A stretch of DNA of 64,000 nucleotides, taken from assembly GCF_016903815.1 (NCBI RefSeq), contig NZ_CP069973.1, one strand, 5' to 3'. Below the pieces are notes generated by a model. That model saw nothing but the letters and a program-made list of their open reading frames with translations. It had not been told where the DNA came from and made no database searches. The position numbers and the translations under genes were made by a program. This DNA is from Escherichia coli. GTDB lineage: Bacteria > Pseudomonadota > Gammaproteobacteria > Enterobacterales > Enterobacteriaceae. Within the stretch, counting starts at the first letter, position 1. Each line of letters begins with the position of its first letter. Below are positions 49,724 to 53,842 of the stretch, in pieces.

Positions 49724-52423
49724 TCAACCAACCTTGCCAGTCAATCCTTCCATAGCCGAATACCCGCAACTTTCGTCATCGGTAACTAAAATCACGTTTG
49801 CCATCTCCGGATCTTTCCGCTGTTCAATGCACCACTGCCTGAACGCTTCCCCTTCCAGTAAAGAAAACTCATCCCGATGTTTTTTCCACCAGCTTCGACG
49901 CACTCTGACAACGCTCATTTCCCATGCGTGAGCACCGTTGGCATAAGGCTTCACCACACTGGCAATACAGGTAGCCAGCCACAGGGAAACAGACTCCTCC
50001 GCCAGACGTGTCGACAGCTTTTCCGGAAGGTAATCGTTGATATTGGCGGCATAGCCAGGCCTGAAGTTCAGCACAAACTTTTTAGCCATTGCGCGATCGC
50101 AGTAATATTTGCCCACTTGCTCCTGCTCGCTGCGGGCAAATCCTTCCGGCATTACCACGTCCTCACCGTAGACTGATTCAATAAGAAGGCGGGCTGCGTG
50201 TGGCATTTGAATAGCGCCTTGCTCACGCAGTACACGCTGCGTCAGCCAGATTCGTCCATGATCGGGATAGACATATGCACTGTTACGCATGGCACTGCCG
50301 AACCATTCGTCACCTGGAGCGTCGTCCCAGACGGGGGCCAGAATCAGCAATTCAGGAGGGGAACGCTCGTCTTTTCCGTCACGCTTTAACTGACCATTAA
50401 TATCGCGGATATGCCGCTGTAATCGCCCCGCTCGCTGGATCAGCAAATCAACAGGGGCCAGGTCGGAAATCATTTCGTCCATATCGCAATCAACGCTCGA
50501 CTCTAAGACCTGAGTACAAATGAGGACTTTTCCGGCACGCTGTGAGCTATCTTCTTTACCGAAGCGTGCCAGCGTTTCCGTTTCAATTCGCTGGCGATCG
50601 CTAAAAGCAAAGCGGCTATGAAACAGAGAAAGGCTGGAAGCAGGAATGACGCCGCGGGCAAGCAACTGACGATAAACCTTAATAGCGTCATCGACAGAAT
50701 TCCGGATCCAGGCGATGCATTTCCCCTGACTTACTGCCGATTCGATACGCGCAATACATTCTTGTTCGCTATGAAGCCAACCCACGCTCACGCTACGCTC
50801 AACGTCTTTGCGCGTCGCTACCCGGTGTGAATGCACATCGGATTTCGTAACGTGCGTCAGCCAGGGGTAATCATCCTTTTCCAGGAACGGAGCTTCTTGC
50901 TGGCCCTCTGTACCACGCGCAAAGGCAGCAACGAGTTTGTCGCACTGCTGTTGAGATAACGTGGCAGAAAGCAAAATGACGCTGTTTCCGCCACGCGCCT
51001 GCCGCTCGATCAGCCCTTCAAGAATGCATGACATGTAAGCGTCACAGGCATGGATCTCATCAGCCAGCAGGATTTTGTTACTCAGTCCCAGAAGCCGCAG
51101 ATTATTATGTTTGAACGGCATCACAGCCATCATCGCCTGATCCAGCGTGCCGACGCCAATTTCAGCCAGTAGCGCCTTCTTGTTACTGTCGGCAAACCAG
51201 GCCGCACATCCCTGACTGAACGTTTGTTCATCCGGTTCTTCTGACCCGACTAAATCACCGGACCAGAGTGATTCATTAAAGCGGTCCATTAATGTTCGGG
51301 CACTGTGTGCCAGCACCAGGCTGGGGCGGGACTCTGGCGAATAGAAAGCAAGCCAGGTTTTGACCAGTCGATCGTACATGGCATTGGCCGTTGCCATTGT
51401 TGGCAGGCCAAAAAACAAACCCTGCGCTTTACCCGCAGCCATCAACCTGTGCGCCAGGATAAGCGCCGCTTCCGTTTTACCTGCGCCAGTCACATCTTCC
51501 AGAATAAATAACTGTGGCCCTGGCTGGCTGATATCCAGATCCAGCACCTTTTGCTGTAACGGTGTCGGATTCTCAATAAAAGGAAACAGCGTATTAATTC
51601 CGGTGAAAGGCGCGACTTTTGCTTTTAGAGGAAAGACGGTTAAGGCGTTTTGAGCCTGAACTAAAGTTTTCTGCCAGTAACCTTTAATATCCATTGGGTG
51701 TGCGACGCGTGGAAAAAATCGCGTTGACGAACCCGTCCAGTCTGCGAGCACGACGGTTGCAGAGATATACCAGGAAAGGTGTTTTATAAGTTCAATGCCC
51801 TCATCATCATCCCAGAATGCGGGGATCTCTATGAGCGGAAACAGTGGTTTGATTTCAAGAAGAAAATCTCGCGCGGCAGCTTTGTCTTCAGGCAGAAAAT
51901 TATCCAGTTCATCAATACGGTCAGGCGGGCGACCATGATGCCCGGTAGTTATGGGCATCCACATCTCCATCACCCGTTTAAGTTTGCGCGGAGAGAGTGA
52001 AGATGAAGGAAGCAATTCTTCGTATTCACTTAAATAATGATGCCACAGCCAGTAGCCCAGCGTTGAATGAGAGATCTTTTCGTAATTCTTTCTTGCGCCT
52101 TCCGGAACCTTGAGTTGTGGGTGCAGGTAAAGTTGCTGAAAAGAGCGGGCAAATTTTCCAGTATCGTGCCAGCACAATAGCCAGGCGAAAAATTGTGCTG
52201 CCTGCTCCGTATCAGCGAAACCTAGTTGACGAAAATAGTCAGTCAGCCCGAAGCAATTGCTTTTAACCATTAAATAGCCCATCGCGGCTACATCCAGCGA
52301 ATGCCAGCAAAGAAGGTGATAGTCGTCGCCCCCGTCTTTCTCGCCGCGTCGGGTTTTTCCCCAGAAATCAAAAAAAGTCACAATATTTTTATCCTTCAGT
52401 AAACTTAAAGGATATTTACGCAT
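49724..52423 (-). CDS. cas3: Cas3 HD nuclease / SF2 helicase
   Basis: 899 aa; N-terminal HD domain, Walker A (DVTGAGKTEAA), DEAH-like box (LADEIHACD). Confidence 0.9.
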   Translation of the reverse strand: MRKYPLSLLKDKNIVTFFDFWGKTRRGEKDGGDDYHLLCWHSLDVAAMGYLMVKSNCFGLTDYFRQLGFADTEQAAQFFAWLLCWHDTGKFARSFQQLYLHPQLKVPEGARKNYEKISHSTLGYWLWHHYLSEYEELLPSSSLSPRKLKRVMEMWMPITTGHHGRPPDRIDELDNFLPEDKAAARDFLLEIKPLFPLIEIPAFWDDDEGIELIKHLSWYISATVVLADWTGSSTRFFPRVAHPMDIKGYWQKTLVQAQNALTVFPLKAKVAPFTGINTLFPFIENPTPLQQKVLDLDISQPGPQLFILEDVTGAGKTEAALILAHRLMAAGKAQGLFFGLPTMATANAMYDRLVKTWLAFYSPESRPSLVLAHSARTLMDRFNESLWSGDLVGSEEPDEQTFSQGCAAWFADSNKKALLAEIGVGTLDQAMMAVMPFKHNNLRLLGLSNKILLADEIHACDAYMSCILEGLIERQARGGNSVILLSATLSQQQCDKLVAAFARGTEGQQEAPFLEKDDYPWLTHVTKSDVHSHRVATRKDVERSVSVGWLHSEQECIARIESAVSQGKCIAWIRNSVDDAIKVYRQLLARGVIPASSLSLFHSRFAFSDRQRIETETLARFGKEDSSQRAGKVLICTQVLESSVDCDMDEMISDLAPVDLLIQRAGRLQRHIRDINGQLKRDGKDERSPPELLILAPVWDDAPGDEWFGSAMRNSAYVYPDHGRIWLTQRVLREQGAIQMPHAARLLIESVYGEDVVMPEGFARSEQEQVGKYYCDRAMAKKFVLNFRPGYAANINDYLPEKLSTRLAEESVSLWLATCIASVVKPYANGAHAWEMSVVRVRRSWWKKHRDEFSLLEGEAFRQWCIEQRKDPEMANVILVTDDESCGYSAMEGLTGKVG

Positions 52424-52560
52424 ATATTAAAAATTATCTGTGATATATATCGTTCAATAAAATATTTACATTATGAATAATCAAATAATTTTCATCCGTA
52501 ATATATATGAATAATAAACATAGGCATAATATTCACATAAACAATATAAATTAAAAAAGG
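52424..52560. promoter_or_regulatory. Strongly AT-rich cas3 upstream region (candidate promoter / H-NS target)
   Basis: About 135 bp of A/T-rich sequence with repeated ATATAT and TAAATA tracts immediately 5' of cas3. Confidence 0.5.
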
Positions 52561-52590
52561 GTGCAGGAGACCAAACCATCACAATTCAAT

Positions 52591-52613
52591 ACGCGGGGTT
52601 TTACCCCCGCGTG
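52591..52613 (-). terminator. Hairpin immediately 3' of hok-like ORF (cgcgggg-loop-ccccgcg)
   Basis: Inverted repeat seen directly; on minus strand followed by TATTGAATTG. Confidence 0.4.
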
Positions 52614-52617
52614 GTGG

Positions 52618-52770
52618 CTACTTCTTCGATTCGTAAGCGAGAACTGCCTTAAACTCCATACCACGTTCTCTGATACTCAACTCACACAACGAGTCGCCTA
52701 CCATCAGCGTGAATCCCAGTACTGTACAACACAGTACGATGATTGCCACAAGGGCATATTTTGTCAGCAT
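52618..52770 (-). CDS. Hok/Gef-family type I toxin (small membrane peptide)
   Basis: Hand-translated 50-aa [53 protein letters not shown]; GGGAGG RBS; Hok signature (TM helix, LCE, AYES); below ORF-track length cutoff. Confidence 0.75.
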
Positions 52771-52985
52771 GTCTTGCCTCCCTGCAAAGAAGAGACTAAC
52801 ATTCGAATTGCTTAGGTTCGAACGCTGGCCTCAGGTTGATAGAAATATCGCCTGGGGCTTTTGTCCATCTGGAACCTCGCGAATGCTTAACGCCAGACAG
52901 CCTCAAGCACCCAACGCCATTCTATACCTGATAATTCTTCCAGCGGCGTTCACGTTTAAAATCAGGAATGCTGCTCGCAAAATAA

Positions 52986-53017
52986 AAACGCCCCCATCAT
53001 TTCTGACAGAGGCGTTT
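52986..53017 (-). terminator. Candidate cysH terminator hairpin
   Basis: aaacgcc...ggcgttt stem with large loop, followed on minus strand by TTTTATT; weak. Confidence 0.3.
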
Positions 53018-53034
53018 AATTTATCCGGCAATAT

Positions 53035-53769
53035 TTACCCTTCGTGTAACCCACATTCTCTTTTTAAGCCAAAGAAACGCGTTTCTTCTTCCGCCATGCC
53101 GGGTTCCCATTTACGGGTTGTATGGGTATCACCGACCGATAAATATCCTTCATCCCATAATGGGTGATATTTCAGGCCATGTTTTTGCAGGTACTGATAA
53201 ATAGTTCGGTTATCCCAGTCGATAATCGGCAGCACTTTAAATACGCCACGCTGAATTGCCAGCACCGGTAAATTGGTGCGGCTGCCGGATTGTTCACGGC
53301 GCAGGCCAGCAAACCAGGTTTGCGCATTCAGTTCTTTCAGCGCCCGGTTCATCGGTTCGACTTTGTTGATGTCATTGTACTTTTCAATGCCTTCAACACC
53401 CTGCTCCCACAGTTTTCCGTAACGTGCTTCCTGCCAGGCGGCGCTTTCGGTAGCGCGGTACACTTTCAGGTTGAGCTTGAGTTTGTCCGTTAACTCGTCA
53501 ATAAAGCGGTAGGTTTCCGGGAACAAGTAACCCGTATCGGTGAGGATCACTGGAATATCCGGGCGAATCTGATTCACCAGATGCAGGCTCACCGCCGCCT
53601 GAATGCCGAAACTGGAAGAAAGTACATATTCACCGGGCAGATTATCCAGCGCCCAGGCAACGCGGCCTTCAGCGTCCAGTTTTTCCAGTTCGGCGTTAGT
53701 TTCTGCCAGCGCCAGAATGCGATCTACCTTCGGCAGTTCGTTCAGGGCGTTTAGATCGAGTTTGGACAT
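53035..53769 (-). CDS. cysH: Phosphoadenosine phosphosulfate (PAPS) reductase
   Basis: 244 aa from [12 protein letters not shown]; C-terminal ECGLH motif; ORF-track start over-extended through REP. Confidence 0.9.
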
Positions 53770-53842
53770 AGATTCCTCACTGTTTGCCTTGCCTGATGCG
53801 ACGCTCACGCGTCTTATCAGGCCTACAAGACCGGGCTGATGG
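53770..53842. repeat. REP (repetitive extragenic palindrome) between cysI and cysH
   Basis: gcctgatgcgacgctcacgcgtcttatcaggcctac matches the REP consensus. Confidence 0.75.

Follow-up and report, generated by a model that had tools for sequence, protein, structure and literature searches.

Identification of the hokX coding sequence

Two questions are raised by the short interval between cas3 and cysH in Escherichia coli: whether a 50-codon frame lying within it is the toxin gene of a hok/sok-type module that can still act, and whether its position at the edge of a CRISPR-Cas operon has a functional meaning. In the 64,000-nucleotide stretch of E. coli DNA analysed here (the window), both flanking genes are on the minus strand, cas3 at 49724..52423 and cysH at 53035..53769. 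A promoter and terminator scan placed a strong terminator-like hairpin (53017..52986) at the close of cysH, so a hok unit downstream of it needs its own promoter. The hokX coding sequence (52618..52770, minus strand; 50 codons, 50 amino acids) runs from ATG to TAG, as established from the sequence, its translation, Pfam and RefSeq. The initial annotation had described a 50-residue Hok-family frame on the minus strand between cas3 and cysH, with which sequence and translation agree exactly, and the GGGAGG ribosome-binding site that it named, read from the sequence and kept in homologues, is present as the hok Shine-Dalgarno (SD; 52782..52777), separated from the ATG by 6 nt.

The layout of HokX read from the sequence is that of an N-terminal hydrophobic, transmembrane helix followed by a DSLCEL...LAYESKK tail that carries the LCE...AYES signature, and all the hallmarks of the Hok/Gef family (about 50 residues, one transmembrane helix, a conserved cysteine and an AYE motif) were found. 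A search against Hok/Gef models, proposed initially as a check, matched the peptide to Pfam HOK_GEF (PF01848; E value 6.3e-10, 38.9 bits), with residues 5-46 spanning positions 1-42 of the 42-position model. We identified 318 homologues with E ≤ 1e-3, of which all the near ones contain PF01848, and the closest paralogue is HokE, with 80% protein identity. The tyrosine equivalent to Y48 of the R1 toxin, whose replacement by asparagine (Y48N) inactivates Hok (PMC9841398), appears to be kept in HokX, as judged from motif correspondence and not from an alignment. Against the curated NCBIfam models the peptide scored below the cut-offs of HokA (NF007290, 53 bits vs 89) and of the Hok subfamily (NF007279, 39.5 bits vs 73), and the same search gave no match to any HokX or HokE model. 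The protein is therefore not called HokA, an assignment that we considered and dropped on the NF007290 score.

The identical protein, WP_000956458.1, carries the label "Hok/Gef family protein" from PGAP/RefSeq in genomes with 100% identical DNA. The initial description of the gene as unannotated thus holds for the open reading frame track from which it was made and not for RefSeq, which has the exact protein; in this strain type RefSeq gives the coding sequence only, leaving SokX and the RNA elements unannotated. The literature moreover already knows the gene as hokX and maps it to the cysH-iap region; the adherent-invasive E. coli (AIEC) NRG857c has it intact, and in E. coli B an insertion sequence interrupts it (PMC7232551). 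Published CRISPR-I maps include a hok sok system, which only strains carrying the K-12-type (E2) variant of cas lack (PMC3903273), and hok and sokX adjoin cysH in 90% of a uropathogenic (UPEC) collection (PMC12736100). The locus is almost certainly the chromosomal hokX/sokX of E. coli, a type I toxin-antitoxin module of the hok/sok type. It was correctly found but is already known and annotated, since RefSeq annotates the identical protein and papers name hokX/sokX at this place. The case illustrates that a real small toxin gene below the length cut-off for open reading frames can be spotted from the sequence without tools, and the coordinate-level map of the hokX/sokX parts given below is an addition to the public annotation.

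Predicted architecture of the hokX mRNA

The predicted full-length hokX mRNA (52553..52912, minus strand, about 360 nt) comprises the leader, hok, a 3' stem-loop, the fbi element and a T-run, and was delimited from Rfam, conservation and folding. Its +1 was set at the G at 52912, taken as position 1 of the Rfam model RF01794. A predicted -10 box, TAGAAT (52919..52924, minus strand), was read from the sequence 6 nt upstream of this start; its T-A-N-N-A-T positions are invariant in nine homologous loci from five genera, and the -35 region is weak. At the other end, the conserved block stops right after the T-run when strains with cas3 or iap downstream are compared. The consensus promoter and terminator scan reported neither a hokX nor a sokX promoter; in this stretch it listed the cysH terminator and a single promoter-like site, which lies within hok (52767..52739), and nothing else, so that our promoter calls rest on homology and position.

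RF01794, named "sok", matched 52755..52912 on the minus strand (158 nt; 111.7 bits vs a gathering score of 59; model positions 1-157). This model represents the strand of the hok leader, and in K-12 its match likewise lies opposite the annotated sokX; the hit therefore backs the leader and not the orientation of the antisense RNA. A consequence for databases is that annotations of a "sok antitoxin" derived from RF01794 give Sok the wrong strand and length.

The full-length RNA folded with a minimum free energy (MFE) of -128.9 kcal/mol (z = -3.6). In this structure the tac element at the 5' end of the mRNA, GGGTGCTTGAGGCT (52899..52912, minus strand), pairs with 52559..52572, the fbi element, GGTCTCCTGCACCC (52572..52559), which together with the T-run (52558..52553) occupies 52553..52572 on the minus strand. 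The 12 pairs join GGGUGC..GAGGCU at the 5' end to GGUCUC..GCACCC. The same pairing was found in the MFE structures of 15 of 16 homologous mRNAs, a set made up of E. coli hokX alleles, hokE, loci from Klebsiella, Citrobacter rodentium and Enterobacter, and one further contig. In the alignment of these 16 sequences, helix 1 of tac/fbi was 100% and helix 2 90% paired, and the named helices together were 96.9% paired vs 34-53% when the 3' partner was slid. The natural fbi variants GGCCTC and GTACCC exchange G-U and G-C pairs with pairing retained. Covariation across the alignment is weak, with only one pair changed on both sides, because the sequences are too close.

Two further elements were assigned in the folds. 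The ucb, or anti-SD, box AAGCCCC (mRNA 53-59; 52854..52860, minus strand) was identified from the fold, its role being proposed by analogy with R1 (PMC9841398). In the closed form its GCCCC (mRNA 55-59) pairs with GAGGC (81-85), a helix that is 97% paired in the 16 sequences and that, on the same analogy, corresponds to the ucb/mok-SD helix of R1. Five nucleotides past the hok stop codon, where a hairpin had been noted initially, lies an 8-bp 3' stem-loop, ACGCGGGG-GTAAAA-CCCCGCGT (52591..52612, minus strand), which is present in the full-length and truncated folds, is 100% paired in the 16 sequences and includes one compensatory change from CG to UA. By analogy with R1, it is predicted to block 3' exonucleases and to set the end of the truncated, active mRNA (PMC9841398). 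The resemblance of this 3' hairpin, GCGGGGGTAAAACC, to a type I-E CRISPR repeat was also considered and rejected, as the G-rich arm is the leading one whichever strand is read, in contrast to the order in the repeat; the likeness probably explains only the shared targeting by IS186 (PMC3903273).

Sok-target hairpin and the antisense RNA SokX

Once the 3' 35 nt were removed, the leader formed a second structure, the Sok-target hairpin GAGGC-C-AGCGUUCGAA / loop CCUAAGCAA / UUCGAAUGUU-A-GUCUC (52792..52832, minus strand), which was recognised in the truncated-mRNA fold and in Rfam, where it is the paired core of the RF01794 model. Among strains, it is chiefly the loop of this hairpin and the outermost part of the inner stem (mRNA 86-88) that vary.

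SokX, a predicted 59-nt antisense RNA on the plus strand (52810..52868), is the orthologue of the K-12 ncRNA sokX (b4701), with which it shares 57 of 59 positions, both differences falling in the 5' tail. It folds into a free 5' tail, a hairpin and a U-tail (-22.7 kcal/mol, z = -3.6). Reading by eye from the 5' end of K-12 sokX, we predicted its promoter at 52774..52802 (plus strand), with a -35 box TTGCCT (52774..52779), a 17-nt spacer, a -10 box TAACAT (52797..52802) and a +1 G 7 nt further on. This candidate has 8 of 12 consensus matches, which is under the threshold of the scan; its sequence does not vary within E. coli and varies little between genera. Its -35 box is the complement of the hok SD. 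That K-12 is reported to carry a sokX sRNA in this region, as stated in the initial annotation, was borne out by the mapping of b4701 to 52810..52868, and the toxin frame is indeed intact at the place where K-12 keeps sokX without hok. The folding analysis that had been suggested for tac, fbi and an antisense RNA thus delineated tac/fbi, the target hairpin, the 3' stem-loop and SokX.

Leader reading frames and the absence of a canonical mok start

In R1, mok begins 9 nt past a regulated GAGG and has to be translated as far as the hok SD, and toxicity is lost if a premature stop interrupts mok before the hok start (PMC9841398). The homologue of this mok SD was located by Rfam alignment (GAGG, 52829..52832, minus strand), with no start codon after it: the site of the mok ATG reads TCG in all E. 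coli hokX copies examined (window 52818-52832). Relatives in Klebsiella and Enterobacter have an ATG 9 nt past GAGG (GAGGCTGGCGTATG), in frame with hok, giving the 67-residue products found in databases. The canonical mok start, one of the elements that define a hok/sok locus, is therefore absent from E. coli hokX. An Enterobacter contig carries two tandem hok genes about 330 nt apart (1472-1675 and 2001-2153), called as products of 67 and 50 residues.

A scan of the mRNA for reading frames returned two candidates within the leader. ORF45 (52812..52868, minus strand; ATG at 52868), a candidate equivalent of mok with a GAGG 6 nt upstream, has its ATG at the position at which hokE starts its long in-frame upstream ORF. 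A TAA at codon 19 (52814..52812) ends ORF45 in the allele of the window, within the target-hairpin loop and 41 nt short of the hok ATG; in the allele of K-12, B and O111 the frame stays open for 34 codons and terminates at a TGA that overlaps hok codons 2-3. The second, ORF111 (52764..52802, minus strand; ATG at 52802), is a mini-ORF of 12 codons that runs through the hok SD to a TGA 1 nt past the hok ATG, overlapping hok codons 2-3, and is the sole leader ORF of the window that overlaps the hok start. ORF111 shows no variation among 13 E. coli strains, and all nine homologues keep it open as far as the hok start; this conservation is ambiguous evidence, because its ATG also complements the -10 box of sok. 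As the R1-type mok AUG is absent and ORF45 is stopped, translation of hok would proceed by re-initiation from ORF111 or from hok's own strong SD.

Allelic variation and disruption of hokX in E. coli

The leader loop, which is also the 5' tail of SokX (window 52810-52826, mRNA 86-102), exists in three alleles, counted as exact words over 5,426 complete E. coli genomes. Allele a1 (CCTAAGC), which has the TAA in ORF45 and is that of the window, was present in about 1,178 genomes (22%), with 603 identical to the window. The majority allele a2 (CCCAAAC), with ORF45 uninterrupted, is that of K-12, B, C and O111 and occurred in about 3,207 (59%); a3 (ACGT-AGC), with a TAG at the same place of ORF45, occurred in about 1,023 (19%). 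Alleles a1 and a3 independently place a stop (TAA or TAG) at ORF45 codon 19, affecting about 41% of genomes. We had considered that a2, with its uninterrupted leader ORF, might be found mainly in disrupted loci; this was dropped, as a2 is simply the majority allele, and insertions and K-12-type deletions were seen on the a1 background too.

Of the 5,426 genomes, 5,415 have the hokX leader, and 4,146 (76%) have 80% or more of the mRNA; all 6,176 matches are chromosomal, with none on a plasmid. An evenly spaced sample of 60 genomes contained 37 full-length loci, nine that break at mRNA position 317, 13 in the K-12 state and one shorter. The break at 317 corresponds to insertion of IS186/IS421 after 52596, within the 3' stem-loop (GGGGGTAAAACCCC), a hot spot for this element, in about 15% of the sampled genomes; in E. 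coli B and C this insertion separates hok from fbi. Deletion of hok, the K-12 state, affected about 22% of genomes in the same sample. In one enterohaemorrhagic (EHEC) lineage, whose protein was seen on 424 contigs, a 5-nt deletion, GGCAA, takes part of the hok SD and of the sok -35 box and fuses the leader ORF to hok, giving 81 residues; judging from the sequence, this one deletion would disable translation of the toxin and the promoter of the antitoxin together. That leader and sokX are almost never lost and hok often is, we read as what the logic of an addiction module predicts.

Selection on the HokX peptide

Among 12 E. coli strains the hok frame had ten variable sites, nine synonymous vs one non-synonymous (pN/pS 0.03, binomial P 1.6e-5), and no synonymous bias was seen in the other two frames of the hok region. 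Within allele a3, in which all members have the ORF45 stop, there were seven synonymous and no non-synonymous changes (P = 4e-5), from which it follows that the peptide is still selected where ORF45 is interrupted. On this substitution pattern, HokX is under strong purifying selection, which argues that Hok is made, via ORF111 or directly from its own SD. In EHEC EDL933 the Rfam-defined hokX leader is transcribed and associated with ribosomes, with a ribosomal coverage value (RCV) of 0.63 from few reads (PMC5331693), data that are weakly compatible with Hok being made.

These results bear directly on the strongest alternative, in which the locus is a translationally silent relic whose parts are intact and whose toxin is never made for want of mok, as proposed for several hok loci of K-12. 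Such a reading would accommodate the lack of a canonical mok AUG in every E. coli hokX copy, the stop in ORF45 of about 41% of genomes including the window, the finding that premature mok stops kill hok expression in R1 (PMC9841398), and the frequency with which the locus is disrupted, by IS186/IS421 (about 15%), by hok deletion (about 22%) and by the 5-nt SD deletion of EHEC. It is, however, difficult to reconcile with the low pN/pS across alleles and with the exclusively synonymous changes of a3, which indicate selection on the peptide after the ORF45 stop arose, nor does it account for the conservation of all other regulatory elements, for an intact ORF111 overlapping the hok start or for the GGGAGG SD that hok has of its own. 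We regard a silent relic as unlikely, though it deserves more weight than any other rival. For specialists, the point of the locus is a mok that is missing or truncated while the toxin stays under selection, and the polymorphism between mok-less and mok-truncated leaders is mildly new.

A model for hokX/sokX function

The reading that best explains the locus, and that we hold with considerable confidence, is a hok/sok-type module that works as in R1 with a non-canonical coupling step. That a toxic HokX product can be made when SokX is removed seems to us probable, if less firmly so. The initial proposal of a functional addiction locus is partly sustained by the RNA architecture, the intact Sok and the selected peptide, and is weakened by the missing mok start and the stop in ORF45.

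For RNA processing, the action of Sok and toxicity, we infer the following course. By analogy with R1 (PMC9841398), the full-length mRNA closed by tac/fbi would be untranslated and would not be bound by Sok. Slow trimming from the 3' end to the stem-loop (52612..52591) would remove fbi, upon which the 5' end would refold onto the AAGCCCC box, the leader would open and the target hairpin would form. An abundant and unstable SokX would then engage the hairpin loop by base pairing of its 5' tail and come to cover mRNA positions 45-103, blocking translation of the leader and leading to cleavage by RNase III. Should SokX fall, ribosomes would translate the leader and open the hok SD, and HokX would damage the inner membrane. 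The coupling would be unlike that of R1, occurring by re-initiation at the 12-codon mini-ORF or by a direct start at hok's own SD.

More tentatively, and with less than even chances in our view, classical mok coupling may have been replaced in the E. coli hokX clade, the gate being a relay from termination in the loop to ORF111 or the hok SD directly, with the loop alleles conferring strain-specific recognition by Sok.

Relation of hokX to the CRISPR-Cas operon

The initial annotation had placed the locus directly beside the CRISPR-Cas operon. This is correct as to position, as hokX precedes cas3 by 130 nt and shares its strand, but the link is positional only. A terminator scan between hokX and cas3 found no hairpin terminator, the T-run alone ending the transcript. 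A functional tie to the cas operon, for example as a CreTA-like addiction cassette or through a transcript feeding cas3, could draw on this arrangement, with its T-run and no local hairpin, and on K-12, where the hokX promoter and leader still lie about 95 nt upstream of cas3. Against it, strains that lack cas genes have hokX, with the identical protein, beside iap, strains carrying the K-12-type variant of cas do not have hokX (PMC3903273), its nearest relatives occupy unrelated contexts (ybdK-entD, mutS and others), and SokX is a cis-antisense RNA without any repeat-like part. Since hokX is found beside iap in cas-less strains and its relatives elsewhere, the adjacency to cas3 is incidental, and its distribution largely refutes a tie to CRISPR-Cas, which we consider very improbable. 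Any interaction would have to be read-through transcription that passes from hokX into cas3.

Three observations were made on the surrounding DNA. In K-12 MG1655 the hokX promoter, leader and sokX are retained, and the replaced DNA, beginning directly past the hok ATG, starts some 95 nt ahead of cas3; hokX and cas3 share their strand there, so that the old hokX promoter may read into cas3. The segment that separates the hokX T-run from cas3 (52424-52552) is very A+T-rich, and unrelated sequence replaces it where iap adjoins. Between cysI and cysH lies a perfect palindrome, TGCCTGATGCGACGCTCACGCGTCTTATCAGGC (53790-53822), which scored 33.6 bits against the REP-derived model naRNA4 (gathering score 59.5) and is probably an ordinary REP element.

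Finally, the possibility that the hok frame is open by chance, with the antisense sRNA as the one real element, could appeal to K-12, which keeps sokX and the leader without hok, and to the unequal retention of leader (5,415 of 5,426) and hok (about 76%), but this is refuted by the full-length Pfam match, the 318 homologues, the synonymous bias specific to the hok frame and the 80% identity to HokE, leaving it a negligible probability.

Comparison with known hok/sok systems

The nearest counterparts of the module in the window are the hokX/sokX loci described in E. coli B, AIEC NRG857c, UPEC and the CRISPR-I maps, which represent the same locus at the same position by cysH. These loci encode the same protein, WP_000956458.1, or, in B and C, its C15F variant, WP_000956460.1. 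In E. coli B and C, IS186/IS421 in the 3' stem-loop cuts off fbi, whereas the 3' end of the window is intact, and the window has leader allele a1 where B, C and K-12 have a2. The sokX remnant of K-12 (b4701) retains the same promoter, 145-nt leader and sokX as the window; everything past the hok ATG has been replaced there, so that hok, the stem-loop and fbi, all present in the window, are absent.

The paralogous hokE/sokE of K-12 shares with hokX the leader, tac/fbi, the target hairpin, the 3' stem-loop and the geometry of Sok and its promoter, and its IS186B, 19 nt past the stop codon, recalls the IS186 in hokX of E. coli B. It differs in its location at ybdK-entD, in a 4-nt insertion that brings the upstream leader ORF into the hok frame, and in the sequences of the loop and of the Sok 5' tail, which are unlike those of hokX/sokX. 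A point against a functional module is that chromosomal hok loci reportedly did not stabilise plasmids (Pedersen and Gerdes, 1999).

With hok/sok (parB) of R1, hokX/sokX has in common a Hok/Gef toxin, tac/fbi, the ucb/GAGG pairing, the Sok-target hairpin and the 3' stem-loop (PMC9841398), as well as a predicted cis-antisense Sok with a candidate promoter lying across the hok SD. R1 has an AUG past GAGG, a mok of 70 residues and a Hok of 52, whereas hokX is chromosomal, has no such AUG and encodes 50 residues.
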